64,000 nt of DNA from Betaproteobacteria bacterium (GCA_009693235.1 SHXR01000007.1:11916-75915), one strand, 5' to 3'; counted from the first letter of the stretch, positions 5,274 to 59,742 are shown. Notes: generated from the letters alone by a model not told the origin. Numbers and translations are program-made.

Positions 5274-6243
5274 ATGCAGCGCATTGCACACATTGTCTTC
5301 TCGGTTATCGCCACCTTAGCGGCGCCCACGTTGTTTGCGCAGTCAGCGTTTCCGAACCGGCCGCTCCGCATCATCGTGCCGCTTGCCGCCGGGGCACTAT
5401 CGACATTATCGCGCGTTCCGTCGCGCAGGCGCTCGGTGAACGGCTGGGACAGCCCGTATTGGTCGAGAATAGACCGAGTGCGAGCGCTCTGGTCGGCACG
5501 CAATTCGTCGCGCGCGCACCCGCTGACGGCTACACCCTGCTGGCGACCGCCAACACCTATGCCTCGGCGCCGGCGATCGTCACATCGCCCGGCTACGATC
5601 CCTATAAGGATTTTGTAGGCATCACCATGACATGTCGCATTCCGATGGCACTGGTGGTACATCCGGGTTCGCCGGTTCGATCGGTGCGCGAACTGATCGC
5701 TCTCGCCAAATCAAAAGAAGGGCGCTGAGTTACGGGTCGTCGGGCAACGGCTCGACCGCGCATATCGCGGCAGAACTCTTCAACCGGCAAGCCGGCGTGA
5801 AAATGCTGCATGTGCCGTACAAGGGCAACGCGCCGGCCCTCACGGATCTGATTGGCGGACAGATCACGATGCTCTTCGATCAGATCAGCACCTCATCGCC
5901 GCACATTCGTTCCGGCAAGGTGCGGGCCCTCGCCGTGACAACGCTTGCGCGCGCGGCCATCCTGCCTGATGTGCCGACGATCGATGAATCCGGACTGCCG
6001 GGGTTCGAAGACGTGACCTTCAATGGCATCGTGGCGCCGGCCGGCACGCCAAGCGCGATCGTCGATCGCCTGTACGCCGAAATTACCGCTGTGCTCGCGA
6101 TGCCCGAATTGAAGAAGCGCCATGGCGATCAAGGTATTGAGCTCATCGCCAGCCGATCCCCGCAGACATTCACCGAGTATCTGCATGCCGAAACACGCAA
6201 ATACGCAGCCCTTGCAAAAGAAGCCGGGATCAAGGCGGATTAA
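5274..6243 (+). pseudogene. Bug/TctC-family tripartite tricarboxylate transporter substrate-binding protein, two frameshifts
   Basis: Three ORF pieces in three frames (5274..5618, 5459..5728, 5632..6243) together spell one Bug protein: signal peptide ...AQSAFPNRPLRIIVPLAAG, then [28 protein letters not shown]..., then ...LSYGSSGNGSTAHIAAELF...KEAGIKAD. Frame switches lie at G-runs 5391-5394 and 5720-5722. Confidence 0.85.
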
Positions 6244-6323
6244 AATTTCGCGCGACGATGAACCGTCAAGATAACCGTGGGGTGGCACAGCACAGCGCAT
6301 TCCACCGCGATGGGCAGCATCAT

Positions 6324-6362
6324 CCAAGGAAACGCTGATCAAGCGATCCTGCGGAATACGCT
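6324..6362 (+). repeat. dual-hairpin repeat, partial copy (hairpin-1 half)
   Basis: ccaaggaaacgctgatcaagcgatcctgcggaatacgct aligns to the first 40 nt of copy A. It lies 39 nt upstream of the Ldh-family gene start. Confidence 0.7.
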
Positions 6363-6400
6363 TTGCTATCCCGCCCTACGTTCCAACCAGGACAGAATCC

Positions 6401-7495
6401 ATGCGCAACGTTCCTGCTGAACTTCTCCGCAAGCAAATCCAATCGGTGCTCACCGCCTGGGGCATGGACTCTGCGCTGGTTCGAACCACCGCCGATGTGA
6501 TGATCGAGACCGATCTTGCCGGAGTCGAGTCGCACGGCGTATCGATGCTGTGGGAATACGATCAATGGCGGCGGCGAGGCAAAGTCAATCTGCATGCGCG
6601 GTGCAAGATCGTACGGGAGAACGCGGTCACCGCATTAGTGGATGCCGATGCGGGACTCGGACATCCGGCCGCTGTCTACGGCATGCAATTGGCCATCGAG
6701 AAGGCGCGGGGGCTGGGGGTAGGGGTCGTGTCGGTGTTCAACTCGCATCATTTCGGCGCGGCCGGCTACTACGCACGCCTCGCTGCTGAGGCGGGAATGA
6801 TCGGACTGATCACCAGCGCAACGCGGACGATTGGCGTCGTGCCCACCCGTGCGAAGCTGCCGCTGCTTGGCACCAATCCGATCGCGTTTGCCGCCCCTGC
6901 CCGTCGCAATCGCCCGTTCGTCCTCGATATGGCCACCTCGACCGTCGCAGCCAACAAGGTACGCATCTACGACATGAAAGGTAAAGCGTTGCCACCCGGC
7001 TGGGTCGTCGATGAACGTGGTGAAGCCGTCCGTGACGCAGCGACCGGTATGGACATCGTGTTCCGGCGCGCAAAAGATCTAGGTGGCGGCCTCGCACCCC
7101 TTGGCGGCACCGCCGACATGGCCAGCCACAAAGGTTACGGCCTGGCGATGCTCGCGCATATTCTGGGTGGCACGTTGTCGGGCGGCTCGTTCTCACCGAT
7201 TCGCGTGAAGACGCAAAAGCCTGGCGATCCCGACAACATCGGCCATTTTTTCATGGCGCTGGATCCGCAAACGTTTCGGTCGGGTGGCGCATTCGAGGAC
7301 GATCTCGATTCGGCAATCGATGTGCTGCATCAGACGCCGCCTGCGAATCCAGCAGAGCCGGTGCTGGTGGCCGGTGACCCGGAGGCCACCACGCGCACCG
7401 AGCGCCTCGCGAACGGCATTCCGATCGCCGCTGCGCTGGCCACAAAAATACGGGAAGTGTGCGAGCAAAGCGGCGTGCCTTTCATCTTGGCGTAG
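6401..7495 (+). CDS. Ldh family (malate/L-lactate dehydrogenase type 2) oxidoreductase
   Basis: 364-aa ORF. Ldh_2-type sequence (ETDLAGVESHGVSMLWEY..., FNSHHFGAAGYYA, LGTNPIAFAAP, HKGYGLAML). Confidence 0.85.
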   Translation: MRNVPAELLRKQIQSVLTAWGMDSALVRTTADVMIETDLAGVESHGVSMLWEYDQWRRRGKVNLHARCKIVRENAVTALVDADAGLGHPAAVYGMQLAIEKARGLGVGVVSVFNSHHFGAAGYYARLAAEAGMIGLITSATRTIGVVPTRAKLPLLGTNPIAFAAPARRNRPFVLDMATSTVAANKVRIYDMKGKALPPGWVVDERGEAVRDAATGMDIVFRRAKDLGGGLAPLGGTADMASHKGYGLAMLAHILGGTLSGGSFSPIRVKTQKPGDPDNIGHFFMALDPQTFRSGGAFEDDLDSAIDVLHQTPPANPAEPVLVAGDPEATTRTERLANGIPIAAALATKIREVCEQSGVPFILA

Positions 7496-7561
7496 CGAGC
7501 ACCGCCATTCAAGCCCTTGCGTTACGATGCTGATTCGATCCCGATTGACATAGGACAGCCA

Positions 7562-8046
7562 ATGACAAAGCTCACGATCAACGGTAGAACGCGCGATGTG
7601 CAGGTGGAGTCGGACACCCGCTCTTGTGGGTGATCCGCGAACAAATCGGCCTCACCGGCACCAAGTTCGGCTGCGGCGTAGCGCTATGCGGTGCCTGTTC
7701 GGTGCATCTCAATGGGGAGGTCGTGCGCTCGTGTTCGATTCCGATAGCGAACATCAAGGCAACCGATCGCATCGTCACCATTGAAGGCTTGTCGCCAGCG
7801 AGCTCGCATCCGGTCCAAAAGGCGCGGGCGGATCTCGATGTGCCGCAGTGCGGCTATTGCCAGTCCGGCCAGATCATGGCGGCCGCCGCGCTGCTCAGAA
7901 AAAAGCCCACGCCCACCGATCAGGACATCGATGAGGCCATGACTAACATCTGCCGCTGCGGCACCTATCAGAGCATTCGCGCCGCGGTGCATCGCGCTGC
8001 GCAGGCGACCGCCGCTCCTGCGGCACCACGCAAACCGGCCGCGTAG
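7562..8046 (+). pseudogene. [2Fe-2S]-binding small subunit of a molybdenum hydroxylase (IorA-like), 5' frameshift
   Basis: ATG 7562 gives [19 protein letters not shown] and then TGA. The rest ([32 protein letters not shown]...[10 protein letters not shown]...CRCGTY) continues in another frame. The switch is at C-run 7617-7619. TTG 7624 could still give an N-terminally truncated product. Confidence 0.65.
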
Positions 8047-10268: not shown

Positions 10269-10352
10269 TCCGGCGCAACGCTGATCAAGCTATCCCGCGC
10301 GATCAGCTGCTTTCGGAGAGTTACGAGCTGGCCTGTTCAGTGACTCCCTAGC
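10269..10352 (+). repeat. dual-hairpin intergenic repeat, degenerate copy E
   Basis: ...gcaacgctgatcaagctatcccgcgcgatcagctgctttcggagagttacgagctggcctgttcagtgactccctag. Hairpin 1 is retained (GCTGATC...GATCAGC); the G5/C5 stem is lost. Confidence 0.7.
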
Positions 10353-11010: not shown

Positions 11011-11789
11011 CTAGCGTGGAAGCTCCGGCCCCATCCGCAAGTCCGCCCCACCTACATACAGGCGATTCCAGGTTGGCGAGATCACGATCTCATTGAGACA
11101 TAGATGAGCGGGCGACTCGGCCACGAAACGCACGACTCGACCGAGATCCTCCGGTTGCAGCATGCGCGCAATTTCTTCATCCGATGGTGGGACGGCACGG
11201 GTCTTCAAAATCGGCGTGGCCACTTCACCCGGACAAATCACGCAACCGCGGATGCCGTTGACGCCATCTTCCATATTCAGCTGATCGGTCATCGCGCCCA
11301 TGCCATGTTTGGTCACGGCATAGGCCGGGCCCGCAAGATACCCGGGGTAGCGCCCAGCCATGACGAGATATTGATGATCAAGCCGTTGCGCCGCGCCCGC
11401 ATTGAAGGCAGCACCGCAAGCATCGTATACATCGCCCCTTTGAGATTGATATCGACGACGCGGTCCCAGTCAGCGACCGAGAGATCCTTGTAGCGGCGCT
11501 TCGGCACGTTGATGCCAGCCGAATTCACGAGAATATCTATCGCACCGTGCCGCGCAACGATCGCGTCGTGCGCAGCGCTCACCTGCGGCTGCACCGTCGC
11601 ATCCATTGGGACGCTCTCTGCCCGGCCGCCGGCACGCGCGATGATGGCGCGTGCTTCATCGAGTTGCGCGGCACGTCGACCAGCCAATACAACCAGCGCG
11701 CCGGATTGCGCCAGCGCCACTGCAGCAGATTGTCCAATGCCGCTGCCTGCACTCGTGACCCAGGCAATTTTTCCGTCGAGCATTCCCAT
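11011..11789 (-). pseudogene. SDR-family oxidoreductase, one frameshift
   Basis: N-terminal half from ATG 11789 (AGGAGA SD) reads MGMLDGKIAWVTSAGSGIGQSAAVALA...NSAG...IINISS, in ORF 11313..12020. The catalytic half (MAGRYPGYLAGPAYAVTKHG, i.e. YxxxK) is in ORF 11011..11361. One frame switch near 11355-11362. Confidence 0.8.
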
Positions 11790-11905: not shown

Positions 11906-13240
11906 TTGAACGAACGTGACGCGAAAGATGTCCTGCTCGCGCGTGCCATCGACACCGCCGGCGCGTTCGGCGTGACGGCTGCCGTGCGCGATGCGTGTTC
12001 CAGCGAAGCCGCGCGGACATGCAATTTGCCCGACGAACCTTCCAAGCCGGACATCGAGCGCTTCATCGTTCGTCGCACGGACCGGCTGCTCGCAAAGGCT
12101 GGCACCGAGGCATCCGCAATCGACCGGCTGCGGGCGTTGCAGATTCCCAGCTGGATGTTTCCGGCGCTGATGCTGGCGGCCTTCATCGCCGGCATGACGA
12201 GTCACGCGTTGGGTGATGCCAAGCGGATCAATCTTCTGCTTGCGCCACTCCTGGCGATCCTGGCCTGGAACGCTGTCATGTATGTCGTGCTCGCCTTACG
12301 CCGATTCCTCCCGCACGGAACGATCGCATCGTCGGTCGCAACCTGGCATTGGCGCCGCTCGATCGGCACGCAACCTTGCACCTTGAATGATGCATGCAAG
12401 GCGTGGTTCACGCATGCCGCACCGCTCATCGATGCGCGGGCGAGCGTCGCCTTGCATAGCGCGGCGATCGCTCTCACCATGGGTGCCATCACCGGCATGT
12501 ATGTGCGCGGCTTGGGCCTCGAATATCTGGCCGGCTGGGAAAGTACCTTTCTCGACGAGCATGGGGTGCAGCGCATCTTGTCGCTCGCGCTGTCGGCGGG
12601 CTCGCTCATTACCAGTATCGAGATCGGTGATGCCGGCCGCATCGCCACGCTGCGCTTTCGGGACGGCGCCGGTGGCGCGCCCGCTGGGCCATGGATTCAC
12701 TTGTACGCAGCAACCGCTACGATGCTCGTAATCATTCCGCGTCTTCTGCTGGCTGCACTTGCCCGAATGCGGGTGCGGGCGCTCGCCGAGCGATCGCCAA
12801 TCTCCCTGGACGATCCGTACATACGCCAGATGCTTCGACAGGTCTCGAAAAAAACTTCGCGGATCAGCGTCATCCCCGTGGCCTTGAACATGGACGCGGG
12901 ACTGCGCCAGGCGCTGCAGGCCGCGCTTGAAGAATCGCTTGGTGGACGCATCGAACTCACCATCGAGGCAACCGTTTCCTACGGCGAATCGATGCGTACA
13001 TCGAACCATGACCGCGTTCTTGTCTTCGCCGCTGCCGCGACACCCGAACCCGAAGTCCATGGCGCGCTGATCGATGCCACCAAGCCGGTCGCGGTGGTGA
13101 TCGATGAAACCGCGCTGCGCCAGCGATTCGGTGCCGATCAGACCATGGCGCATCGTATCGAAGAGCGGCGCAACACGTGGCGAGCCTTGGTGGCCAGCGC
13201 GCATTTGACGCCGGTATTCATCGCCGCAGCCCTACCATGA
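11906..13240 (+). CDS. DUF2868-like polytopic membrane protein
   Basis: ORF 11822..13240. TTG 11906 behind GAGGA is the more plausible start; ATG 11822 is the alternative. Central hydrophobic helices (FPALMLAAFIAGM, LLAPLLAILAWNAVMYVVLAL, AAIALTMGAITGMYV, ATATMLVIIPRLLLAAL). The stop overlaps the next gene in ATGA. Confidence 0.7.
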   Translation: MNERDAKDVLLARAIDTAGAFGVTAAVRDACSSEAARTCNLPDEPSKPDIERFIVRRTDRLLAKAGTEASAIDRLRALQIPSWMFPALMLAAFIAGMTSHALGDAKRINLLLAPLLAILAWNAVMYVVLALRRFLPHGTIASSVATWHWRRSIGTQPCTLNDACKAWFTHAAPLIDARASVALHSAAIALTMGAITGMYVRGLGLEYLAGWESTFLDEHGVQRILSLALSAGSLITSIEIGDAGRIATLRFRDGAGGAPAGPWIHLYAATATMLVIIPRLLLAALARMRVRALAERSPISLDDPYIRQMLRQVSKKTSRISVIPVALNMDAGLRQALQAALEESLGGRIELTIEATVSYGESMRTSNHDRVLVFAAAATPEPEVHGALIDATKPVAVVIDETALRQRFGADQTMAHRIEERRNTWRALVASAHLTPVFIAAALP

Positions 13241-14667
13241 ACACCATCACCCTCACGCTCGTCTCGCACACAAACGCCGGCAAGACCACCCTCGCCCGCA
13301 CTCTGTTACGCCGCGATGTCGGTGAAGTGCGCGATGCGCCGCATGTCACGCAGGAGAATGAACCGTTCGATCTACTGAAAGCAAACGACGGCGCGGTGCT
13401 GCGGCTATGGGATACGCCTGGATTTGGTGATTCGGTACGCCTTGCCGAGCGTCTGGCGCAATCGGGCAATCCGATTGGATGGCTGCTCACTAACGTTTGG
13501 GACCGCCTCACCGATCGCAACTTCTGGTTCAGCCAGCAGATCCTGCGCAATGTTCGCGACGAGGCCGACGTGGTGTTGTATCTGGTCAACGCGACCGAAG
13601 ACCCGGTGCATGTCGGCTACATCGCACCGGAAATGCGGATCCTCACCTGGGTCGGCAAGCCGGTGCTGGTGCTCCTCAATCAGCTTGGCCCACCGCGCGA
13701 TCTTGCCCATGAAGAAGCCGAGATCACCCGCTGGCGCGATGTGTTCGCCAAGACACCGATCGTGAAAGAGGTCTTGCCGCTCGATGCGTTCGCCCGGTGC
13801 TGGGTGCAGGAGGATGCACTGCTCGCCTGTGTCGAATCACTGCTCTCTGGCGGCAAGCAAGCGCATTTCGCAGCGCTTCGCGCCGCCTGGGCCGCGCGCA
13901 ATCGGCAGGCGTTCGACGATGCGATGCGTGCGCTGGCGGTTCCTCTCGTGCGCGCCGCGCAAGCGAGGACCGTACTTGAACAGCACGGCTGGCTGGCATC
14001 GATCGTGCAGATGGCCATGCGCGTCGGCAGACGTGGTGGCAAAACCGGGCCAGAAGCGAAGGCGATCGAAGCGCTCGGCAACGCGGCGGCGGTCGACATT
14101 CGACAGTCCACCGATGCGCTCCTTCGCCTGCACGGATTGGACGGCACGGCGACCCAGAAGATTCTCGATCGCCTGTCCGCGCAGGTGGGAATAACGCGAC
14201 CGATCGACGAAAATCAGGCCACCGTAATTGGCGGCGCGGTGATCGGCGCTCTTTCGGGACTGGTCGGCGATCTCGCGGCCGGTGGTCTCACCTTGGGCGG
14301 CGCGGCCCTAAGCGGCGCGGTGGCCGGTGCGCTCGCTGCACGTCTTGCCGCGCGCGGCATCAATCGGCTGCGCAGCACCGAACAAACCAGCCTCGCATGG
14401 AACGAAGCTTTTCTCACCGAGCTCACGCGCTCATCAATGCTGCGTTATCTTGCCGTCGCGCATTTCGGGCGTGGCCGCGGCGAGTGGACGGAAAGCGAAT
14501 TTCCGCGCCATTGGCAACCGGTCGTCGATGCCGTAATCGCGGCACGATCCGATCATCTGCGCATCGCCCTCGCGGCAGGACGCACGCATGGCGATGCCAC
14601 GCCGCTTGCCGATTGGCTTGGCGAGGGTTGCAGGGAAGTGCTGGCACACCTGTACCCGCAGCCTTGA
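13237..14667 (+). CDS. P-loop GTPase with C-terminal DUF3482-like glycine-zipper membrane domain
   Basis: Starts at internal ATG 13237 (MNTITLTLVSHTNAGKTTLARTL is G1, WDTPGFGDS is G3, LLNQLG stands in the G4 position). C-terminus is VIGGAVIGALSGLVGDLAAGGLTLGGAALSGAVAGALAARLAA. ATGA overlap with the DUF2868 gene. Confidence 0.75.
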   Translation: MNTITLTLVSHTNAGKTTLARTLLRRDVGEVRDAPHVTQENEPFDLLKANDGAVLRLWDTPGFGDSVRLAERLAQSGNPIGWLLTNVWDRLTDRNFWFSQQILRNVRDEADVVLYLVNATEDPVHVGYIAPEMRILTWVGKPVLVLLNQLGPPRDLAHEEAEITRWRDVFAKTPIVKEVLPLDAFARCWVQEDALLACVESLLSGGKQAHFAALRAAWAARNRQAFDDAMRALAVPLVRAAQARTVLEQHGWLASIVQMAMRVGRRGGKTGPEAKAIEALGNAAAVDIRQSTDALLRLHGLDGTATQKILDRLSAQVGITRPIDENQATVIGGAVIGALSGLVGDLAAGGLTLGGAALSGAVAGALAARLAARGINRLRSTEQTSLAWNEAFLTELTRSSMLRYLAVAHFGRGRGEWTESEFPRHWQPVVDAVIAARSDHLRIALAAGRTHGDATPLADWLGEGCREVLAHLYPQP

Positions 14668-15539: not shown

Positions 15540-17627
15540 CTAATGCCCGGCCGTTGCCTGCGGTACGTGCGCCGATGGAATCGGCGTATCGTCCATCACG
15601 ATTGCCAGCCCGGATTCTTTAGCCGGCGCTGCGGCGATCTCCACCGCGGCGGGCACCGCCGCCTTTGGCGCAGGAGCGAGTGCACTGACGACTTCCCGGT
15701 CGATGATAGGTGGCAACGGTGAATCCAGTGCCGCGGCGACCGCCCGCATCAACTCTGCCTTTCGCACCGAAATGCGTCCATCGGCGATGACGGCGGCGAG
15801 ACATGCCTTGATGAACTGCGGCTTCTTGAGTGGCGCGAGCCGCGCGATCCGCGCGAGCGACTACTCGACTTCATCCATCTTGATGGCAGATGGCGCAAGG
15901 AGCGTCGCACCTTCCAGTTCGATATCCTTCATCAGCTTATCGAACAACACGCTGCCCTCAGATGCGATGCGCACGAAAAGCGAAAGGACCTTGGCGATGT
16001 CATCCCGAAGCGGCGTGAGCGACATATATTTCGCCATCTTGCCGCGATGGGGCGTGTCATCCATGGCGCGGGTGAGCATCACCGACAAGGCGAAATCGAA
16101 TGGCGTAATGCGTCCGTCGGCGGCAATAATCTGACGCACCAGCCCGGCAAATCGCAACCTATTTTCCCGCGGCACTGCACGCAGCGTCGGCAGCGCAAGC
16201 GACACAATCGGCAAGCGCAGGTGTTGATTTTGGCCACGGAACGTGCCAATCACGGTGCGCGCAAAAGCGAGGGCCGCTGATTCGCCCGCGGCTGACACGA
16301 TCGCGCCGATATTTGCTTCCGGTTTCGCATCGGTCGCGAGCAACGCGATGATGATGCCTTTCGCGCCATCCAGGTGTCCGAGCCCGGCGCGAATCGACTC
16401 AGGGAATGAGGCGATCAGCGCTTTGGCATAGTCGACGTGGTACGCCTCCGGATTCCCGATGCTCGAAACGACTTGATCAGCCCCCACCACGACGGTCGCG
16501 GCCCCACCAGAAATCGCCGGCGCCGCTCTGGGCGGTAACGCCTGCGCTGCCATCGCAGCCATGGCAGCATGCTGACGCAACGGACGCGCAGGCGTTACCG
16601 GCAGCTCAGCGTCTTGGCTATTCGCTGAATCGTCCTCACTCTCCCCATCTGCTCGCTCATATGCTTCAGCAGCTTGGCGAAGGCGTTCTTTGGCACTGGG
16701 GCCGAGTACGCGTCCGATACGATCTTCCAGCGGCGGGTGGGTGGCAAAGAGGCCGCTGATGCGTGATTCCAATGCCGCGGCGATAAACATGTGACTGACT
16801 TCGGCCGTCGCCGGATGATCGACGATGCCGCTCTCTGTGGCGATACGAATAAGCGCCGACCCGATGCCATCGGGATTGCGTGTGAACTGCACCGCCGAGG
16901 CATCGGCAAGATATTCGCGTTGCCGGCTGACGGCAGCACGAATCATGTTGGCCGCGAATAATCCGATGGGGCCGATCGCCATCAGCGCGCCGCCGAAAGC
17001 GAATAACGCCAATGCGGCACGTCCATCCGAGCCGCGGGCGATATGAAAGAAGACGCGTCCGCCCTGCCCCACCATCTCGGTGCCAAACAAAAGACCAAGC
17101 ATGCGCAGATTCAAGCGCATATCGCCATTCAAAACATGGCTGAATTCATGCCCGATGACGCCTTGCAGTTCCTCGCGCTTCATCGATTCCAACAGGCCAA
17201 AGGTGACCGCGATCGCTGCATCGTTCGGGGAGTAACCGGCGGCGAACGCATTGACGCCCGATTCGTGCTCCATCACGAACACCGCCGGCACCGGCACGCC
17301 CGATGCAATGGCCATCTCCTCGACGACATTGAGGAGCTGCTTTTCCTGCAGGTCGGTCGTCGATTGCAGGATACGGCGCCCGCCCATCATTTCCGCAACC
17401 GCACTGCCGCCTGCTCGCAGCATGGCGATCTTGACGCCCGACCCACCCAAGATGACGAGCGCGGTAATCAATGATATCGAGGCGATGAGCGGCAAACTCC
17501 GGTCGCCAACGGCGATGCACACCACCAAGTCGACGGCGATGACGACGCCCACCACCGCCAAGGCGAAGAGAATCGTCAGGCGGCGCGACGCTTTGCGGGC
17601 CGCATCCTGATGCGCGAAAAAATCCAT
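15540..17627 (-). pseudogene. M48-family zinc metallopeptidase with C-terminal TerB-like repeats, interrupted by an in-frame TAG
   Basis: ORF 15861..17627 has N-terminal TM segments and the HExxH motif (GVIGHEFSHVLNGD). The TAG at 15861-15863 is in frame with 15540..15860. That stretch continues the protein (SLARIARLAPLKKPQFIKACLAAVIADGRISVRKAELMRAVAAALDSPLPP), echoing the upstream ADGRITPFDFAL module. Confidence 0.8.
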
Positions 17628-18261: not shown

Positions 18262-18314
18262 TGAGGCTCCCTGGGAGAGGTACAAACGGATGGCTGGATC
18301 GCGTCCTGGCGGCG

Positions 18315-42007: not shown

Positions 42008-42011
42008 CCCC

Positions 42012-48669: not shown

Positions 48670-48684
48670 GACGCCTCCTATTAT

Positions 48685-48783: not shown

Positions 48784-48922
48784 CCTTCTGGAAACTGTAA
48801 GCCCGGATTGCCTCGCGGTCAACGCAGGATGCGCTAAACGGATAAGCTCTTCATCGTAGGCCGGTCACGGATCGCTTCGACCGAACCACGAACCTTGTCG
48901 GATTCCAATAATAAGGGGAGAC

Positions 48923-50047
48923 ATGAACGAGACCGAATACGAGATGACGCAACCGGAACGCTCGACGCAATGCCTCGACTGCAGCGGCACGCATGCGTCT
49001 GCTACGTTCGGCGCCAGGCGGCACTTTCTGAAGGCGCTTGGTGGCTTCGGTGCTGCAGCCGCGTTGCCGGCCTGCACAGCGCTCGACTCGGGGCCGCGCC
49101 AGAAGCTCATCGACACGCATCATCATTTTTATGCCCCGGCGTATTAGGATGCCTGGCTAGCTTGGGACAAGCAGCGCAACATTCCGCACACCCCATTGCA
49201 GGGCAGTTGGACGGTCCGGCAGGCCGTTGAAGAGTTGGATGAGGGCGGGGCCGGCACAGCGATTCTGTCGCTCGCCTCGACGCCGGGACTGTGGTTCAAC
49301 TTGCCCGCGGCGGAGGTCTCGAAGATGGCGAGGACATGCAACGAGTTCGCCGCGAATATGGTGCGCGATCACCCCGGACGCTTCGGCCTCTTCGCCACGC
49401 TCTCGATGCTCGACATCGACACGACTTTGAAGGAAATCGAGTACGTCCTCGATACGCTGAAGGCGGACGGCGTCGGGCTGCAAACCAACTACGGGGACAA
49501 ATGGCCCGGCGACAAACTCTATCAACCGGTATGGGAAGAATTGAATCGCCGCAAAACAATCGTCTACTTCCATCCGCTGGTGGCGGCGTGTTGCGGCAAC
49601 CTGGCGGTGGGGACCTTCCCCGATGTGATCGAGGTACCGCACGACACGACGCGGGCGGTCACGAGCCTGCTCCTCTCCGGAACATTCGCCCGCAACCGCA
49701 ACATCCGCTGGATCTTCTCGCATGCGGGTGGAACGATCCCGATGCTCGCCGGCCGCATCGGCGCGTTTGCCCGCATGCGGAAAGACCTCGCCCAATTCGC
49801 ACCCGATGGCGTGGACAATGAGCTGCGGCGGCTGCACTACGACACCGCCAATGCCTTGCACCCGTCATCCATGGCGTCCCTGCTGAAGCTCGTTCCGGAC
49901 TCACAGGTGACGTTCGGGTCGGACTATCCATACTTTCGGGTGGGTACGCAGGGGAGCGCATTGCAGCAGCTCGGGCTCGGTTCCTCGCAAGTACGCGCAA
50001 TCGAGCGAGGCAACGCCGAGCGGCTGATCCCGCGACTCAAGGCATAA
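48923..50047 (+). pseudogene. amidohydrolase-2 (ACMSD/metal-dependent hydrolase) family protein with Tat-like signal, interrupted by an in-frame TAG
   Basis: ORF 48923..49147 (RRHFLKALGGFGAAAALPA...LIDTHHHFYAPAY-TAG) and ORF 49196..50047 are in the same frame. The codon after the TAG at 49145-49147 continues [13 protein letters not shown]...IVYFHPL...HAGGTIP...FGSDYPY. Confidence 0.85.
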
Positions 50048-50057
50048 CCACCACAGC

Positions 50058-50085
50058 GGCCGCCCCGGGACCGGCCGGGGCGGCC
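50058..50085 (+). terminator. GC-rich hairpin after the amidohydrolase pseudogene
   Basis: ggccgccccgg-gaccgg-ccggggcggcc: 11-bp perfect stem 10 nt after the stop. Only a short TT follows, so the U-tract is weak. Confidence 0.45.
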
Positions 50086-50292
50086 TTCAATCAGCGAACT
50101 TCGACATCGATACCGGAACCCGTCAACGCCTTTGCCGTGTGCGTGATGGCGTTGCGGTGATCACGGCACGAAAAAAGGCATATCGGTCGCCGACTGCATC
50201 GCGCACCTTCAGATAAACCCGCACACGCTCACCGGCGATCGCGTCGCTGCGCTGCGAACGCATCGGACCGGTTCGCAAGAGCAAGCGACAGG

Positions 50293-51276
50293 TTATTGCC
50301 GTTCGATATTCTTCACTTCCACGATGCGCTTCCAGCGCACGATGTCGCGTTCGACGCGCGCACGCATCTCAGCAGAAGAGATATGCGCCGGTACGCCACC
50401 GAACTCCGCGAATCGCCGCTCGATCTCAGGCAGCGCCAAAACGGCTCGCAACTCGCGACTGATGCGATCGATGATGGCAGGCGGTGTTGCGGGCGAGGCC
50501 ATCAGACCTTGCCACGATATCAGTTCGATCTCGCGCAACGTCTCGGCTACCGGTGGAATCTCGGGCAACAACGCATAGCGGCGTGCGGCGGTAATGCCAA
50601 GTGGACGCAGCTTGCCACTGCGAATCGGATTGCCGGCAAAGGTCGTGGTTGCGAGCATCACATCCACGCGCCCGGCGATCACTTCGACAAACGCGAGCGC
50701 CTCACCCTTGAAGGGCACGTGAATCATGTTCGTGCCGGCTTCCATATTCAGCCACTCGCCCAGCAGGTGGTGAATGCTGCCGATGCCGGGCGAGCCATAA
50801 CTGATCCGGCCGGGTGCCGCCTTCGCGCGGGCAATGAGATCGGCAAACGACTTGATCGGCGATTCCGGCACCACCCCGATCACCATCGGATAAGCGATAA
50901 CGGTGCTGATCCACGCGAAGTCGTTGACCGGGTCGTAGGGCAACTTCTTCATAATCGCAGCGGTACTCGCATGGCCGCCACTCAGAAGCCCGAGTGTGTA
51001 GCCGTCCGGCGGCGACTTCACCACCGCGTCGTTGGCGATAAGGCCCGTACCGCCTGGACGCGCCTCGACGATGATTGGCTGCCCAAGCCGCTCGCCAAGA
51101 TGCTGGCCGATCAGGCGCGCGACGATGTCGGCCGTGCTGCCACCCGCGAAACCAATGAGGAGGCGAATCGGGCGGTAGGGATAGTCCTGGGCAAATGCGC
51201 ATGGGGCCGCGACCATTGCCAGACAAGCGATTGCCCAAGACAACCCACGATGAATGAAGCCGGCCGCGCGCGTCAT
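50293..51276 (-). CDS. Bug/TctC-family tripartite tricarboxylate transporter substrate-binding protein
   Basis: Intact 327-aa ORF. Signal peptide, then [48 protein letters not shown]. Its start overlaps the cysK stop in ATGA. Confidence 0.9.
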
Positions 51277-52208
51277 TCCATCAACCCGGCATAGAGCGGT
51301 GTCGTCAAATATCGCTCACCAAATGATGGAATGATTGCGACGATCATCTTGCCGCGGCTCGTATCGCGCCTGGCCACTTGCAGCGCCGCCCAAATAGCCG
51401 CCCCGGCCGATATGCCGGTTAGCAGGCCCTCTTCCTTCGCCAGGCGACGCGCGGTATCCAGTGCGTCATCGTTTTTCACACGCATGATCTCGTCGCAAAC
51501 CTCCGCATCAAAATTGGCCGGTACAAACCCCGCGCCGATACCCTGAATCACATGCGGCCCTTTTTGCCCGCCTGAGAGGACAGGTGAAGCATCCGGCTCG
51601 ACCGCCACGCATCGAAAGCCGGGCTTTTTCGCTTTGATTGCCTTGCCGATGCCGCTTAGCGTGCCGCCCGTACCGATACCCGATATCAGGATGTCGGCGC
51701 GACCATCGGTGTCGCGCCAGATTTCCTCGGCGGTGGTGCGGCGATGCACTTCCGGATTCGCCGCGTTATTGAATTGCTGCGGCATGAAATATTTCTTTGG
51801 GTCGGATGCGACCAGCTCTTCGGCGCGTTTCACCGCACCCATCGCCCCTTCGGCAGCGGGGGTGAGAATCAACTGCGCACCATAGGCGCGAATCAACGCC
51901 CGGCGCTCGCGGCTCGCCGATTCAGGCATTGTGAAGATCGCCGGATATCCTTTTACGGCACACACCATCGCCAACGCAATGCCGGTGTTGCCGCTGGTCG
52001 GCTCAACGATCGTCGTGGCCGGGCCGATCAAGCCGGCCCGCTCGGCCGCCTCGATCATGGACACACCGATGCGATCCTTGACGGAGAGCCCCGGGCTGAA
52101 GAACTCGAGCTTCGCCAGAACTTCGGCTTGGCATCCCTCTGTGAGGCGATTGATTCGCACCAGCGGGGTGTTGCCGACCAATTCGGTGACGTCACGGGCG
52201 ATCTTCAC
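51273..52208 (-). CDS. cysK: cysteine synthase A (O-acetylserine sulfhydrylase)
   Basis: 311-aa [17 protein letters not shown] lysine context [40 protein letters not shown]. Confidence 0.9.
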
Positions 52209-52265
52209 AGCGGCTCTCCTGGTGTGAGTACGTTGCGCTAAGGTTTGCGCGGGTCATCCACGGGG

Positions 52266-52475
52266 TTAACGTACGTAATCCCCCCATGGTCCGGTGCCAT
52301 TTAACTGAACGATGACCTCATCGTTGGTCCAGGCGAAGTGCTGATGCTTTGGCTGCATGATCATCAATCCGCCGGCCGGGACGGCCATCGATTTGTCCAG
52401 GTCGAGCTTATCACCGGAGCCCATGTAGAACGTTCCGGACAATACGGTAACGCGTTCCACGGTCGCGGCGAGGCT
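52266..52475 (-). pseudogene. 3' stump of a small cupin gene
   Basis: Only the C-terminal ~70 codons read as cupin (TVERVTVLSGTFYMGSGDKLDLDKSMAVPAGGLMIMQPKHQHFAWTNDEVIVQLNGTGPWGDYVR). The rest of the ORF is antisense to another remnant. The 5' boundary is uncertain by about 50 nt. Confidence 0.45.
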
Positions 52476-53446
52476 TATTTCGCCGACGCCAAGCCGGAAC
52501 CCGCGATCGATTGTTTTACGCGCTCGATCGCCTTCGCCAAGGCAATCGGCGACAAGAGCTGCGAGTCGGAAAACCTGATGATGATCGGCTGGGCGAGCCT
52601 CGGGTCGATGGGGCTTGGCGACTATCCGCGCGCGATCACGCATCTGGACGCCGGCCTTGCCATCGCGCGGGCCGCCGATCTCGCCTGGCATATCGGTCCC
52701 CTGCGGATTGCACGCGATCACATCCGCCACTGCCTTGGGCAGTTCGGCGAAGCCTGGCAGGGCCTCAACGAAACGTTGAAGCGATTGGAAGAACTGCACT
52801 TAGTCCGCTACCAGATGATGGCCTGCAACATGCTGGGGCACCTGTTGCTTGATTTGTCGCTCGATGCTCAGGCAACGGCCGCATTTGACTGCGGACTCGC
52901 GATCGCCAATCAAGCCAATATGACTTATTGGACCCCGCTTCTGCATGCCAATCGCGCGATCGCGCGAGTGCGGCAAGGTGCGCCGGATGTGGAATCGGAA
53001 CTGGTGAGCGCGCTCGAGCATTCGCTGACCAATCGGGAAGGCTGGTTCCTGCCACGCTGTTACGAGGGGCTCGCCGAGTTGCAATGGCGGCGCGGCGACA
53101 CAGCACGGTGCATACACTATGTCGATCAGCTTCTATCGCTCGCCGAACAGGGCAATCTGCGCGAAGTGCGCGCGCGGACAGCGATGGCGGGGTGAAGCGA
53201 TGCTGGCAAGCGGTCATCACGAAGCGGCGAATACCGAATTGCGCGCCGCGCTTGGTACGCTGCGCTTATCATGGGATATTCATCACGCGTTAGCGCGAGT
53301 CTCACGCGTTAGCGCGAGTCTCACGCGTTAGCGCGCAACCCGAAACGGCCAAACGCCACGACGCTGATGCGCTCGATCTGCGGACCAGAATCGAATTGAG
53401 TCTACGCGACACCGATTTACGGCTGGGACCAAACGATCTCGTCTAA
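52440..53446 (+). pseudogene. 3' remnant (TPR-like repeat region) of a large regulatory protein, at least 2 frameshifts
   Basis: No N-terminal domain is present. TPR-like helical repeats (AIDCFTRSIAFAKAIGDKSCESENLMMIGWASLGSMGLGDYPRAITHLDAGLAIARAADL...) continue through three frames (52338.., 53119.., 53348..) to TAA 53444-53446. Confidence 0.45.
53284..53335 (+). repeat. 19-bp tandem repeat, ~2.7 copies
   Basis: cacgcgttagcgcgagtct x2 followed by cacgcgttagcgcg. It lies inside the decayed TPR-regulator remnant. Confidence 0.85.
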
Positions 53447-54227
53447 AGCCCCAGAAAATCCAACACCGCCCGATCGAAGATCTCGGTCTGCTCGATATTC
53501 GGCAGGTGCCCCGCGTTCTTGATCACCACCAACTTCGAGCCTTGAATCCCGCGCTGTAGGAACTCAGCGGCGCTCACCGGCGTGCCGACATCCTGTTCAC
53601 CCACGATGATCAACGTAGGCATCTTGATGTCGGCAAGGATTGATGCCTGATTCATTTTCTTGATCGCATGCGCGCAACCCACCAGACCATCGACCGCGGT
53701 ACGTGAAATCATCGTGGCCATTTTCTCCATCTGCGCGGGATGAGTCTCACGATAGGATTGCGTGAGCCAGCGCTCCGTCATCCCCTTCACAAACGCGGAA
53801 GTTCCCTTGCTTTGCGCAAGGGCAATGCGATCGTCCCATGCCGATTCCGGGGTAAATGGCACGCGGTATCGCAAAGGACCACCGTTCGCAGCCGTGCTGC
53901 GTGCTTCGCGGCCAGACATTGCGCAATCATGCCGCCCATCGATAGCCCAAGAAAATTCACCCGATCGATCCGCAACGCATCGAGCAGTGCTACCACATCG
54001 GCGGCCAGGAGATCGATGGTGTACGGGCCGGGCGTAGCTTCCGTCCCGCCATGACCGCGCGTGTCGTAGCGCAGCAATCGATACTTCGCGGCAAACGCCG
54101 GCACTTGCAAGTCCCACATGCCGTAATCGGTCAGAAGTGAATTGCTCAACATGAGAACGGGTGCATTCACAGGGCCATCGAATTGATAGCTGATCTCGAT
54201 GCCGTTGGCTTTGATGCGGCTGGACAT
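53443..54227 (-). pseudogene. alpha/beta hydrolase, 3-oxoadipate enol-lactonase (PcaD)-like, one frameshift
   Basis: ATG 54227 (GAGGAAAG SD). MSSRIKANGIEISYQFDGPVNAPVLMLSNSL...GLSMGGMIAQ...VLCDTA in ORF 53787..54323. It continues as VPFTPESAWDDRIALAQSKG...NAGHLPNIEQ in ORF 53443..54117. The switch is near 53860-53866. Confidence 0.8.
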
Positions 54228-54984: not shown

Positions 54985-55080
54985 TTAGGGAAACGCTGAT
55001 TGAGCTTTCCCGCTCAATCAGCGTGCTCAAATATTCAGGGAGCTACGAGGGGCGAGCCCCCTCGTTCAGTGATTCCTTAG
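54985..55080 (+). repeat. dual-hairpin intergenic repeat, full copy B
   Basis: ttagggaaacgctgattgagctttcccgctcaatcagcgtgctcaaatattcagggagctacgaggggcgagccccctcgttcagtgattccttag. Collinear with copy A, and both hairpins are kept by compensatory changes (GATTGAGC...GCTCAATC). Confidence 0.9.
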
Positions 55081-55323: not shown

Positions 55324-57968
55324 ATGTTTGGCCGAATGAACGATGCAATAAGGCCGCTCGCGATGCTTGCGATGCTTGCGATGCTTGCGTTGCTCACACT
55401 CGCCGGCTGTGGCGGCGGTGGTGAGGGTGGGGGTATTGCCGGGCTTCCTAGTCCCAGCAGCAACGATGCATTTTCTCTGTCTGCATCAAGCGTCTCTTTT
55501 CAGGATTTCAGGGCGACCATCAAAACGCAAAGACGGTGGTCGTGACCATGCACCGCGGGAATTTTCTTATCGAGGCAACTACCAACGGCAGACTGGTTAC
55601 CGGAACCTTCAATGCGATCAATGCCTCCACCGGCGTCTTGACCCTCAATTTACCGAACGCGTCGCTCCGGGCACCGGGCACTTACACAGGGACCGTTTCT
55701 GTTCGGGCCTGCACCAATGCGGTCTGTTCGCCGGGAAGTGAAGTTGCCGGCAGCACAAAACTGATCAACGTCTCCTTCGCCGTTGCCGCCGATCTTGCCG
55801 TATCGACGACCAATACGAATATTACTTACGCTACCAGCGGCCCCAATCCGGCTCAGCAGCCGATCAATGTGGCCGCCGCAGCAGGCATGGCGTGGAGTGC
55901 GTCGTCGAATCAGCCCTGGCTCGGCCTTAGCGGAATCAGCGGCGTCGGCCCCGGCACTGTCAACTACATCGTCAATCCTAGCGGGCTCGCGCTTGGCACC
56001 TACAACGGTATTCTTACGTTCAGCGCTCCCAGTATAGGGCGCACCAAAACGCTGGTAATAACGCTGAATATTGTGGCACCGGCAACGACCGCAGGCACCG
56101 GGTCGCTGACATTTACCGGGATCGCCGGTACAGCGGTGCCATCGCAATCGATCAACGTGACCATGAACAATGGCACGCCTGTCAACTGGTCCGCGACAGC
56201 AGGCGCCGCATGGCTGGTGGCGAGTCCGACTACCGGTACCACACCTGCGGTACTGACCGTCGGCATCAATGCTTCTGGTTTGGGCGCGGGTACCTATACA
56301 TCGAGCGTCACCATCGCAGGCGCCGGGCTTAGCGCTCCGACCACGCTCAATGTCTCACTCGTGCTGTCGACACCGACGTTGGGCGTAACGCCGGACAACT
56401 TGTCGTTCGGCGGACCAGACGGTGGTTACGACCCAAGCGGCAAGACGGTTCAACTCAGCATCAATACCGGCGCGAACGCGTTCGCATGGAGCGCGAGCAG
56501 CCCCAACGCATGGTTGCAGGTCTCACCTGCCGCGGGCTCAATCTCAGCGACCCCAGCAACGATTACCGTCAAGGTCAACGCGGCGAGTCTACCCATCGGG
56601 ACCCATAACGGGTCGATCAACTTCACCGCACTCGTCAATGGCGTCCCGGTGAATCACTCATTACCGGTTAGCGCGCGAATCGATGCGCACAAGATCCCGG
56701 TGAGCGATGTGGGGGTGGCGTTGACCAGCGCACCGTCTGCTTCAAAATTGACCCAGACGTTGAAAGTGAGGAGCAACCGCGGCGCCCCCATTATCTGGTC
56801 GGCAAGTTCGAACCAGACGTGGCTTACCGCAACATCGAGCGGCGTGACAACGGGGGATCTAGTGCTTACCGCCAACCCATCTGGACTCACCGCGAATACA
56901 GTGCACCATGCAAACGTAGTCATAACCTCGACCGATGTCTCCGTAACGAACATCGAGACCGTGCGTATCGGGCTTTGGGTCGGTTCAACGACGACGACGC
57001 CTGGCCCCATCGCACAGACGCTAGAACGTCTGTATGCGGTGGATCCGATCCGGCCTTACGCTTATGGATATGACGTGGTGAACGGGCAACCCAGCCTCAT
57101 CGTTCTAAACATCTACAACCGGGGTATCGTGGCCACCGTGCCAATCGGTGCGCCCATGGGCACGGCGGTGGTCGCCAAAGATGGATCGCGCCTGTTTGTC
57201 TCTGACGATCAGCAACGCATCATCCCGATTGATCTTCCTTCCTTTGCGGTTGGGACTCCATGGGCGAATAGCATCGCCGGAGCACCGCTTGTCGCCCCTC
57301 CCACCGATCTTGAATACGCACGATCGAATGGAGTCGGCCTGCTTATTTCCGGCAATGGGCGTTTTTACGATCCCGCGACGGGTACCCCATACAACACCAC
57401 CTTTGCGACCGGAGCGATCGATTCACTGCGCCGGGTACGGACTAGTCGAGACGGCAATTTGCTTTGCCATCAGACCACGAGCTGGTATCCGTACACCCTG
57501 AGCTGTCATGGACTCTATATCGCATCAGACACACCGAGCCAAGTGCTGCTCGGCCCAATAAAATCTGGCCTTGCGGGGAACGGGACCCAGGCTGGATCCG
57601 ACTTCGCAATCAATTGGAACGGAACACGTGTGTACGTTCCATCCTTCATGTGTTGTTCCGCTGCGACGGGTGAGTTCCGGGTTTTCGATGCGACGACATC
57701 GACTGCGACCATGGCCGAAACGCAAACATTCCACTATGCCGGCAACCCGAACGGCGTCGAGATTCATCCGGATGGTCGGATTTTCTTCGGCAGCGCGGTC
57801 GCGGGAACGGGCACGGATGTTTGGGTTCACGACAGTAACGGGGCATTCCTCACCAGTTACGAGCTGTCTTCCTCCGCAGGCGCCTTGTCCACGCTCATGT
57901 TTTCGGGTGACGGTCTCCAGGCAATCGCCATTTCCGACCGCGTCTTGATCACTACGATTGGTCCGTGA
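55324..57968 (+). pseudogene. large lipoprotein with five tandem Ig-like (BACON-type) repeats and a C-terminal beta-propeller-like domain, frameshift after the signal peptide region
   Basis: ATG 55324 sits behind a G-rich SD. The lipoprotein signal MFGRMNDAIRPLAMLAMLAMLALLTLAGC and first ~55 aa are in ORF 55204..55545. The remaining 810 aa are in ORF 55536..57968. The frames join (...SASSVSFSGFQGDHQNAKTVVVT...) if T-run 55497-55500 gains one T. Confidence 0.65.
55360..55386 (+). repeat. 9-bp in-frame tandem triplication inside a signal peptide
   Basis: gcgatgctt x3 (perfect), followed by a diverged fourth unit gcgttgctc. It encodes (AML)3 within LAMLAMLAMLALL, in the hydrophobic core of the lipoprotein signal. 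Confidence 0.9.
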
Positions 57969-58065
57969 GCAATCCCGGAGCCGGATTGATTCTCGCTACA
58001 TGGCAATAATGAGGGCCAGGGGTCGCATCTTGTATCATCACACCCTGCATTGAAAGGTTGCCACG

Positions 58066-58932
58066 ATGACCCGTCCCCTCCGTATCGAATACCCCGGCGC
58101 TGTCTATCACGTTACTTCCCGCGGCAACGCTCGCCAACGAGTCTTTCTCGATGGTGATGACCGCGAAGCTTTCTTGGCGACCTTGGCATGGGTGGTTGAA
58201 CGCTTTGGCTGGCTTTGCCACGCCTATTGTTTGATGGACAACCACTTTCACTTGTTGATCGAGACGCCAGAAGCCAATCTTTCCCGCGGCATGCGCCAAT
58301 TGAATGGCGTCTACACACAGACCTTCAATCGCCGCCATCAGCGAGCCGGTCATCTGTTCCGCGGGCGATTCAAGGGGATTCTGGTCGAGAAAGATAGTTA
58401 CCTTCTGGAATTGAGTCGCTACATCGTCCTCAATCCGGTGCGAGCAAAAGTGGTCAAGCATCCCGGGCGCTACGCTTGGAGCAGCTACCGCGCAACGTTG
58501 GGGGTGGCACCGGTGCCGCCGGCTCTGACCATCGACCGGCTATTGGAGCGGTTCGCAAAAACCCGATCCGTCGCCCAGAAGCGCTATGCGGAGTTTGTGC
58601 AGGCCGGAATTGGCGGCGCATCGCCCTGGGAGAAATTAAAGGGGCAGGTGCTTTTGGGGGATGTCGCCTTCATTGAAAAAATGGCGCCGCAACTCAACCA
58701 GCGCCTGGCATCGATGGAAACTTCCCGGCGGCGGCGACTGATGCATCGTCCGTCGCTCAAGACACTGTTGGCGGGAACAAAATCCAAGGAAGCGCGAAAT
58801 AGTATGCTCGCTCGCGCATACCTGGAGCATGGCTACACCCTTGCAGAACTTGGCCGTGCCACCGATTTGCACTTTGCGACGGTGAGTCGAATCATCAAGG
58901 CGGTCGAGAAAAAATCGCAAAGCAAGATGTGA
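58066..58932 (+). CDS. HUH/Y1 transposase-like protein (IS200/REP-associated RAYT-type) with C-terminal HTH
   Basis: Intact 288-aa ORF. YHVTSRGN, HUH motif DNHFHLLIE, catalytic Tyr context LSRYIVLNPVRA. The C-terminal ~60 aa form a DnaA-domain-IV-like HTH (YTLAELGRATDLHFATVSRIIKAVE). No terminal IS ends are seen next to the gene. Confidence 0.8.
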   Translation: MTRPLRIEYPGAVYHVTSRGNARQRVFLDGDDREAFLATLAWVVERFGWLCHAYCLMDNHFHLLIETPEANLSRGMRQLNGVYTQTFNRRHQRAGHLFRGRFKGILVEKDSYLLELSRYIVLNPVRAKVVKHPGRYAWSSYRATLGVAPVPPALTIDRLLERFAKTRSVAQKRYAEFVQAGIGGASPWEKLKGQVLLGDVAFIEKMAPQLNQRLASMETSRRRRLMHRPSLKTLLAGTKSKEARNSMLARAYLEHGYTLAELGRATDLHFATVSRIIKAVEKKSQSKM

Positions 58933-58936
58933 CGCC

Positions 58937-59742
58937 ATGACCCGCACATTGCTGGAAAGCGCCTATACCCAAGGGCGCGACAGTATCTACCACACGAGCG
59001 AGCTCACCCGTGGCCCTTGGCATCCTGATCGCCAGCACGCCGGCCCGCCGTTGCGTTGGCGTGCCGCGCGATGGAGCGCGTCGCAGAGGGGAGTGGCCTC
59101 ACCCATATCGCCCGCCTCACCGCTAATCTGCTGCGCCCGATTCCGCTCGGCGATCTCACCGTCAGCGTGGCGACCGATTACGTCGGGCGCAATGCCGGCC
59201 ACTATTCCGCGCAGCTTTTCGCTGCCGGCAAGGAGGTCGCGCGCTTCACCGCGCTCGCGCAACGAGAGAATCCGATGCGGCTGCCTCAATTGCACCCCGA
59301 TGCGCCACAGGAAACAGCGCCACGCACGCTCGAAGCGTCGCCGCCTTGCCAATTTCCGTTTGCCGGCCACCATGTGGGTTATGCCGATCTGGTCGAGACG
59401 CGTCTTGCCAAAGGGCGTATCTTCGATGGGCCCTGTGCCACCCGGTTCCGATTGTGTTTTCCACTCGTGCAAGGCGAGTCAACGAGCGATTTTCAACGCA
59501 TCGCGGTATTCGCCGATTCAGGAAATGGCATTAGCGCTCCACTCGATTTTGCCAAGTACATCTTCGTCAACGCCAATCTGACCATCAACTTTCTAAGGAA
59601 GCCGCGTGGCGATTGGATCTGCCTCGACGCGCAGTCGCATGTTGCGTCAAACGGAGCCGGCGTTACCACATCCAAGTTGTTCGATACCGAAGGACTGATT
59701 GGTTTCGCGACGCAAAGCCTCGCGGTACGGCCGCGTGAGTGA
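58937..59742 (+). pseudogene. acyl-CoA thioesterase-like (double hotdog, TesB/4HBT_3-type) protein, one frameshift
   Basis: ATG 58937 gives MTRTLLESAYTQGRDSIYHTSELTRGPWHPDRQHAGPP. The sequence continues as (V)ALACRAMERVAEGSGLTHIARLTANLLRPIPLGDLTV... in ORF 59056..59742. The switch is near 59047-59051. Confidence 0.7.

Follow-up and report, generated by a model that had tools for sequence, protein, structure and literature searches.

Gene disruption in a 64-kb genome fragment of an uncultured betaproteobacterium from deep Lake Baikal

Transitional, pseudogene-rich genomes are known from bacteria that have recently become host-restricted, including Mycobacterium leprae, Sodalis glossinidius, Bordetella pertussis, Burkholderia mallei and Serratia symbiotica; in the usual bacterium pseudogenes amount to a few percent and coding density is 85-90%. 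The stretch of DNA analysed here, referred to as the window, is a fragment of 64,000 nucleotides (nt) from a metagenome-assembled genome (MAG) of a Lake Baikal betaproteobacterium, with positions counted from its first letter. Six-frame reading, Pfam profiles and comparison with orthologs identified 18 disrupted loci out of ~60, or ~30%, a recount in agreement with the 17 of ~59 proposed in a sequence-only reading of the same DNA. Of the window's length, 62% is intact coding sequence and 28% belongs to disrupted genes. The lesions are considered to represent real, recent and continuing gene decay under relaxed selection in a natural deep-Baikal population, with a probability of roughly 0.8. 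The phenomenon itself is known and the window is a new example of it in an unexpected habitat.

The window resembles the host-restricted transitional genomes in the large number of genes broken by one frameshift or nonsense codon, or by a few, in its low coding density and in a graded decay with a bias towards deletion. It differs from them in that no host is known, insertion sequences (IS) have not proliferated within the 64 kb, the G+C content is unchanged, the DNA was obtained from deep-lake plankton and the sequence is only a fragment. Polynucleobacter necessarius, the symbiont of Euplotes, is likewise a freshwater member of the Burkholderiales with many recent pseudogenes when set against close relatives that possess intact orthologs. 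It is, however, a documented obligate endosymbiont of ~45% G+C, whereas the window has a G+C content of 60% and its relatives are uncultured MAGs at a synonymous divergence (dS) of ~1. The sediment-to-pelagial transition of the Methylophilaceae has given rise to streamlined planktonic genomes with few pseudogenes and compact spacers (PMC6794327). The present organism shares with these a betaproteobacterial lineage, a large oligotrophic lake and the loss of accessory genes relative to richer relatives, but the window holds many pseudogenes and only 62% intact coding sequence. Pseudogenes are said to be scarce in planktonic oligotrophs, and such a pattern would therefore be unusual in a free-living organism. 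It is just as likely that this contig, being rich in accessory genes, decays more quickly than the remainder of the genome.

Independent assemblies and intact orthologs

The window is part of an 85,294-bp MAG contig, listed at NCBI as "Betaproteobacteria bacterium" and built from Illumina metagenome data for depths of 1250 and 1350 m in Lake Baikal. Its CysK and M48 proteins match MSQ18609.1 and MSQ18579.1, respectively, without a difference. Runs SRR8561390 and SRR8561391 are winter metagenomes of Lake Baikal from 1250 m and 1350 m (PMC7678222), both obtained by Illumina sequencing with reads of ~150 nt (PMC9948471), and the DNA originated from water-column plankton filters at the two depths. 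The organism is an uncultured Burkholderiales-type betaproteobacterium of oxic bathypelagic Baikal water. The G+C content of the window is 60%, rising to 72% at third codon positions (GC3).

Logan assemblies of the two runs yielded five contigs, and two more at the transposase gene, that cover window positions 4303-7869, 27147-42581, 48740-53286 and 57062-60385. Over ~29 kb these contigs were 99.89-99.98% identical to the window, with 13 single nucleotide polymorphism sites and only two indels. They reproduced both frameshifts in a Bug-family binding-protein gene and the lesions in IorA, in a cyclic-nucleotide-binding thioredoxin-reductase-like gene (cNMP-TrxR), in a TRAP binding-protein stump and in a lipocalin gene, together with the DsrE region and the TAG codon of an amidohydrolase gene. 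The stumps of an enoyl-CoA hydratase (ECH) and a cupin, most of a regulator stump and the thioesterase lesion were also reproduced. A further assembly, ERZ1305449 (ENA), was compared by the lengths and coordinates of its gene calls. The same lesions were thereby found base for base at 11 loci in independent assemblies, and by ERZ1305449 call lengths at four more, namely the short-chain dehydrogenase (SDR), M48, Slt and lipoprotein genes. With an Illumina source and independent assemblies that agree, sequencing error is largely excluded. The sequence-only reading had left the choice between mutation and sequencing error to be made; the Illumina reads, the replicate assemblies and the intact orthologs decide it in favour of real mutations. 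Its argument that the nonsense codons, stumps and multi-hit genes cannot be homopolymer artefacts was borne out by confirmation of the TAG codons, the stumps and kb-scale deletions.

At least two strains co-occur. ERZ1305449 includes a strain variant (IorB of 733 rather than 734 amino acids (aa), with other lengths of DUF2868 and DUF3482) that shares the Bug, IorA and SDR lesions, which are therefore older than the strain split. At position 33570, contig L036 from SRR8561391 reads CC where the window and SRR8561390 read C, and the extra base cancels one of the five frameshifts in cNMP-TrxR. Since this difference between assemblies lies in an already dead gene, the gene is still gaining hits. 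For the PcaD-like gene, ERZ1305449 calls an intact product of 261 aa, and the offset of its flanking coordinates corresponds to one base more than in the window; the PcaD frameshift is thus either an inactivating allele that segregates in the population or a local assembly error in the window. At 4327, in an intergenic hairpin, a poly-G run differs in length between the window and the Logan contigs (7 vs 8).

Four metagenomic contigs from uncultured Burkholderiales share local gene order with the window: L039 (GCA_046154555.1), L040 (GCA_031372715.1), L041 (GCA_043755905.1) and L043 (JGI 3300082540). Synteny with these relatives is patchy. Intact window genes show 78-96% protein identity to them, except for the DUF2868/DUF3482 pair at 58-66%. 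Whole genes are present in the relatives for PcaD (261 aa), LemA (198 aa), M48 (710-711 aa), amidohydrolase (372 aa), Cupin_7 (156 aa) and the regulator (1033 aa), while the DctP-type TRAP gene is partial at 316 aa, being cut at a contig end. Ortholog alignment had been proposed as a check on the sequence-only reading, and as these related contigs carry intact copies, the lesions in the window are derived. A metagenome scan based on IorB returned relatives of only 68-77% and no orthologs for SDR, Slt, lipocalin, lipoprotein or thioesterase; it served for the IorA comparison and for the Bug paralogs.

Disrupted loci and the nature of their lesions

The lesions are scattered across 54 kb, between intact genes. 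Sixteen of the 17 damaged loci listed in the sequence-only reading were confirmed by reading of the frames, by profiles or by homologs, and the remaining one, DsrE at 36113-36590, proved to have only a possible 5' lesion. The three nonsense codons it had named, in M48, amidohydrolase and cNMP-TrxR, are present, and a fourth TAG lies in the TRAP stump. The TRAP, cupin and TPR-regulator stumps are confirmed by longer orthologs, and a fourth remnant, of ECH at 50103-50189, has to be added to the three. Losses beyond that list comprise the reduction of ECH to 29 codons and the complete absence of a methyltransferase gene and a 117-aa gene of a relative. When set against intact homologs, each listed locus except DsrE shows a frameshift, an early stop or a truncation and so fits the description of a bacterial pseudogene, as far as can be read from sequence. 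Decay is graded: 12 loci carry a single lesion, as may the doubtful DsrE, while six lesions are present in cNMP-TrxR and at least three in the TPR stump. In a post hoc test against a uniform per-base rate, the presence of at least 5 of 23 lesions within the 1.7 kb of cNMP-TrxR had P = 6e-4. A probability for the absence of lesions in the intact genes was dropped as circular.

Several changes affect short homopolymers, namely G5 to G4 and CC to C in Bug, C4 to C3 in IorA, GGG to GG in SDR, GG to G in the thioesterase, G to GG in the lipocalin, a C-run in PcaD and CC to C at 33570. Deletions of a single G or A outside such runs are found in LemA and TRAP. Other classes are represented by Slt, which has probably lost a (GC)n unit, by the lipoprotein with its 8-nt duplication, and by the regulator with 2-nt and 18-nt deletions and a 19-nt repeat. 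The earlier proposal that most single-base lesions lie in runs of 2-5 nt holds for ~8 of 12 placeable sites, most of them placed indirectly, and fails for LemA, TRAP, Slt and the lipoprotein. Net losses of bases make up about three quarters of the lesions.

All four nonsense codons are TAG. Given the codon usage, 52% of the single-step routes to a stop codon lead to TAG, so that four of four has P ~0.07. TAG is also the commonest genuine terminator, ending 17 of 39 intact genes, and there is therefore no sign of recoding. No common slippery motif was present at the frameshift sites, where the runs are very short. Recoding of TAG and programmed frameshifting were rejected.

Where no ortholog was available, frameshift sites were inferred from paired reading frames. 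The pseudogene of a Bug/TctC-family binding protein (5274-6243, plus strand) has two net -1 frameshifts, placed at the G-run 5391-5394 and at CGC 5723-5725. Its signal peptide lies in frame +3, TctC profile positions 1-103 in frame +2 and positions 106-273 in frame +1, and paralogs align in three frames; pieces of 114 and 203 aa are also found on Logan contig L038 and in ERZ1305449. In the IorA-like 2Fe-2S small-subunit pseudogene (7562-8046, plus strand) one -1 frameshift was assigned to the C-run 7617-7619. Stitching of the frames extends the Fer2 match from 19-55 to 2-55, homologs of 84-85% identity align only from 7618, and the lesion recurs in L038. The SDR pseudogene (11011-11789, minus strand) has one -1 frameshift, probably at GG 11358-11359, which places adh_short positions 1-144 and 138-189 in different frames; pieces of 158 and 116 aa are called on two ERZ1305449 contigs.

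The LemA pseudogene (17667-18262, minus strand) has lost a single G at 18161, outside any homopolymer. The 198-aa ortholog of L043 aligns with aa 1-34 in frame -1 and aa 33-198 in frame -3, and the site was confirmed by DNA alignment. A Liv-type periplasmic binding-protein pseudogene (20905-22169, minus strand) has one net -1 frameshift, as shown by the Peripla_BP_6 match, which covers profile positions 1-235 in frame -3 and continues with 234-325 in frame -2. The pseudogene of the soluble lytic transglycosylase Slt (25538-27593, plus strand) is frameshifted, probably by loss of one GC unit from a (GC)n run at ~26141-26150. In Neisseria LtgA (5o1j), which has 580 residues, its second frame finds a match over 173-578, and since this C-terminal match starts at residue 173, the N-terminal part of ~170 residues is encoded in the other frame. 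The N-terminal fragment had no match in PDB sequences or Pfam, the split being read from the LtgA alignment and the frames; the ERZ1305449 gene call is 516 aa.

Towards the 3' end of the Lipocalin_5 gene (35184-35816, minus strand) a +1 frameshift is attributed to an extra G at 35365-35366. Profile coverage is 2-121 of 142 as encoded and 2-141 of 142 when stitched, and the replicates also give a 210-aa call. The DsrE-like lipoprotein gene (36113-36590, plus strand) matches its profile over 31-115 of 116 positions. Its signal peptide lacks a start codon in the same frame, the ribosome-binding site and the TTG at 36113 belong to a different frame, and no ortholog was found. The PcaD-like alpha/beta hydrolase gene (53443-54227, minus strand) shows a 1-nt deletion near 53850, in a C-run, and the 261-aa orthologs of the relatives align to it in two frames. 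In the gene for a large BACON-domain lipoprotein (55324-57968, plus strand) the signal peptide appears to be split from the body by an 8-nt duplication (TTTCAGG at 55498-55504 and 55506-55512). From the frames and the DNA, removal of 8 nt gives ...SVSFQGDHQNAKTVVVT, and the ERZ1305449 call of 806 aa is without the signal peptide. The acyl-CoA thioesterase gene (4HBT_3; 58937-59742, plus strand) has a -1 frameshift, probably near 59050. Coverage of the 4HBT_3 profile is 16-81 as encoded and 2-81 when stitched, the lesion recurs without indels in contigs L124 and L125, and the ERZ1305449 call is 223 aa.

The M48 peptidase gene (15540-17627, minus strand) is interrupted by an in-frame TAG at 15861-15863. 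Its product has 588 aa, as opposed to 606-711 aa in the other 119 homologs listed; two of these, P0167 and P0168, align past the stop to 15543 with arginine opposite the stop codon, and ERZ1305449 calls products of 588 and 69 aa. At 15543-15860, the 106 codons past the TAG are free of further lesions and, in the conserved part, ~90% identical to the closest homolog. Judging from this sequence, either the nonsense mutation may be very young or the downstream part may still be expressed. The Amidohydrolase_2 gene (48923-50047, plus strand) has TAG at 49145-49147 where the ortholog has CAG. The 372-aa L039 ortholog aligns over residues 5-371 in one frame across the stop, and pieces of 74 and 283 aa are present in L034.

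The most heavily damaged gene is that of the cNMP-binding thioredoxin-reductase-like protein (33163-34815, minus strand), in which five frameshifts are combined with a TAG at 33523-33525 and the loss of the 5' end. A cNMP_binding domain is followed by Pyr_redox_2 positions 1-58, 93-197 and 223-291, distributed over three frames. Full-length homologs of ~550 aa (P0330) align as five segments with four frame changes and a fifth change lies at the N-terminus, so that the earlier description of five frameshifts plus a TAG is matched exactly. The pieces are common to L035, L037 and ERZ1305449. Adjoining it is the stump of a TRAP DctP-family binding protein (34803-35146, minus strand), with a 1-nt deletion at 34879, a TAT to TAG change at 34866-34868 and homology that stops at 34803. 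About 115 N-terminal residues are retained; the L041 ortholog aligns only over its first 75 residues, at 88-92% identity in two frames, and the lesions recur in L035 and L037. In L041 (1-2260) TauD is flanked by the TRAP binding protein and by TraB, whereas in the window (32801-35146) the cNMP-TrxR wreck occupies that place. L041 therefore has no ortholog of cNMP-TrxR, and full-length homologs were taken from the representative library. The sequence of the fusion between cNMP-TrxR and TRAP at ~34803-34815 points to a rearrangement or deletion junction.

The remaining stumps are accompanied by larger losses. With ECH from L039 and from L040 as tblastn queries, a remnant of aa 5-33 of 273 was located at 50103-50189 (plus strand), at a site that measures 246 bp in the window vs 1.6 kb in a relative. 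A Cupin_7 stump (52266-52475, minus strand) retains aa 84-143 of 156, with 92% identity to the L039 ortholog by tblastn, and recurs in L034. The stump of an HTH-AAA-TPR regulator (52440-53446, plus strand) retains aa 702-1032 of 1033 and has a 2-nt deletion near 53165-53169 and an 18-nt deletion near 53260; orthologs from L039 and L040 align to it in three frames. A perfect 19-nt tandem repeat of 2.8 copies at 53283-53335 is absent from both relatives, which would make the duplication very recent. The window lacks ~3.5 kb that the relative has between the parts corresponding to the cupin and regulator stumps, including the cupin 5' end, the methyltransferase gene and 701 regulator codons. Relative to L039, the deletions amount to about 3.5 kb and 1.35 kb.

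Other features of the window

By Pfam annotation and long open reading frames (ORFs), accessory functions dominate the ~60 loci of the window. Transport is represented by three TctC/Bug binding proteins, two Liv-type ABC systems and AmtB, and enzymes by zinc dehydrogenases, luciferase-like monooxygenases, cupins, glutathione transferases, an amidohydrolase and thioesterases. Further loci encode an IorAB-like molybdoenzyme, 2-oxoacid dehydrogenase E1 and E2, CysK and Slt. No tRNA genes, Rfam families or core informational genes were identified in the 64-kb window.

The E2 acyltransferase gene (38350-39546) is separate from the fused E1 gene (45840-47831). Among 185,579 GTDB species genomes its best relatives are 30-52% identical, although neighbouring genes have relatives at ~90%, and the scan with this protein returned no close genome and no synteny. 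A PIN/DUF3368-like gene with a neighbouring 76-aa ORF at 37732-38262 resembles a toxin-antitoxin pair, undamaged in every assembly. The DUF2868/DUF3482-GTPase pair (11906-14667) is 58-66% identical to L043, between flanking genes at 91-96%, and two length variants of each gene are present in ERZ1305449. From these comparisons the locus would be either fast-evolving or exchanged.

An intergenic element family of ~100 nt is formed of two hairpins, ACGCTGATTA...TAATCAGCGT and GGGGCGAGCCCC. Full copies, 93% complementary and with a fold z-score of -4.9, are located at 48683-48783 and 60759-60859, and partial copies at 4301-4333, 5234-5264, 6322-6379, 10277-10308, 35222-35252 and 54985-55079. A single intact gene for an IS200-like Y1 transposase, of the kind associated with repetitive extragenic palindromic (REP) elements, lies at 58066-58932. 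No repeated IS copies occur in the window, where the traces of mobile DNA consist of this transposase gene and the short REP-like palindromes. By their sequence, the hairpin elements and the transposase may constitute a REP/REPIN-RAYT system. The 795 bp at 60727-61521 contain no convincing ORF; a copy of the hairpin element at the start is followed by ORFs with weak or no family matches. The region may be another eroded gene.

Selection, age and competing explanations

The ratio of nonsynonymous to synonymous substitution (dN/dS), which had been suggested as a test of the decay, was estimated by the Nei-Gojobori method against the relatives. The median was 0.086 for disrupted and 0.056 for intact genes (one-sided Mann-Whitney P = 0.03) in 9 and 19 comparisons, respectively, some genes being counted against two relatives. 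At dS values of ~0.5-1.8, about 1, recent changes are swamped. The low dN/dS of the disrupted genes therefore indicates that purifying selection acted on them over most of the period since the split, a result that would be expected if they were inactivated late on the time scale of the separation from the relatives. A purifying history, genes mostly hit once and polymorphic sites together indicate that inactivation is recent.

Decay of this type could proceed as follows. The affected genes are mostly accessory, encoding solute-binding proteins, small catabolic enzymes, a regulator and envelope proteins, and might be under relaxed selection. Disabling would occur by slippage in short mono- and dinucleotide runs, by small tandem duplications and by C to T and other TAG-creating changes. 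The bacterial deletional bias would then remove the dead genes, from one hit to many hits, to a stump and finally to absence. The cause is inferred to be relaxed selection after a change of habitat or lifestyle, with a pattern that would reach beyond the window.

Several observations weigh against this account of recent and continuing decay. The 64 kb seen are rich in accessory catabolic and transport genes, so that pseudogenes may be far less frequent in the genome as a whole. LemA and the Liv-type binding protein are the only loci without a replicate assembly. The Logan runs, ERZ1305449 and the MAG probably derive from one lake campaign, so the assemblies are independent while the populations are not fully so. 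The PcaD lesion may be an assembly error and not a polymorphism. Some truncated products may, on sequence, still work, given that the M48 catalytic domain is kept, the lipocalin lacks only ~20 C-terminal residues and DsrE may have an alternative start. The companions of host restriction are not seen in the window, which shows no IS copies or expansion, 60% G+C and a GC3 of 72%. By analogy with the known transitional genomes, the proposal in the sequence-only reading of a host- or niche-restricted organism appears reasonable.

That the genes are intact in the cells, and appear broken because homopolymers were miscalled or because the consensus of a MAG that mixes strains contains errors, is very improbable. 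Several single-base lesions can indeed be placed in runs of 2-5 nt, the PcaD frameshift is absent from ERZ1305449 and strain microdiversity exists, yet the reads are Illumina, three assemblies agree and the lesions are clustered in few genes. Four nonsense codons, stumps, kb-scale deletions, 8- and 19-nt duplications and deletions outside runs are moreover not homopolymer errors. Functional interruptions, with readthrough or recoding of TAG and frameshifts bypassed by programmed ribosomal or transcriptional slippage, are hardly credible. The in-frame stops are indeed all TAG and the M48 region past the stop is well conserved; but with P ~0.07 for that uniformity, TAG as the normal terminator and no shared slippery motif, nothing sets these sites apart, the orthologs need no recoding, and stumps and multi-hit genes are beyond rescue.

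Local decay is possible but doubtful, the window then being a dispensable accessory island in the process of loss while the rest of the genome has 1-5% pseudogenes and no change of lifestyle is needed. The gene content, almost all accessory catabolism, transport and regulation with no RNA or core informational genes, would agree with this, as would the patchy synteny. The lesions, however, extend over the whole 54 kb amid intact genes that are 88-96% identical to orthologs and under strong purifying selection; the conserved genes Slt, LemA and M48 are also damaged, and the same neighbourhoods in the relatives are intact and tightly packed. An obligate eukaryotic host such as a protist, sponge or amphipod, in whose recently restricted symbiont or pathogen drift through bottlenecks would fix lesions, is unlikely. 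About 30% pseudogenes at ~60% coding density is classic for that stage, as in M. leprae and S. glossinidius, and the Polynucleobacter symbiont of Euplotes is a precedent among freshwater Burkholderiaceae. Against such a host stand the lack of IS expansion and of AT drift, intact large transport and catabolic operons, the origin of the DNA from plankton filters at two depths and the co-existing strain variants, which point to a sizeable population.

Recent and continuing decay in a natural deep-Baikal population thus remains the preferred reading. MAG annotations of this organism fragment many genes, and the fragments should carry pseudogene flags. It is tentatively suggested, and with considerable doubt, that a free-living deep-Baikal bacterium is in early, drift-like genome reduction, with about one third of its genes recently disabled and alleles of PcaD and cNMP-TrxR still segregating. 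If this were true, reduction in free-living plankton could pass through a pseudogene-rich stage that has so far been documented almost only in host-restricted bacteria. The window would represent either a natural snapshot of gene loss outside a host or an unrecognised host-associated member of the Burkholderiales in the Baikal water column.

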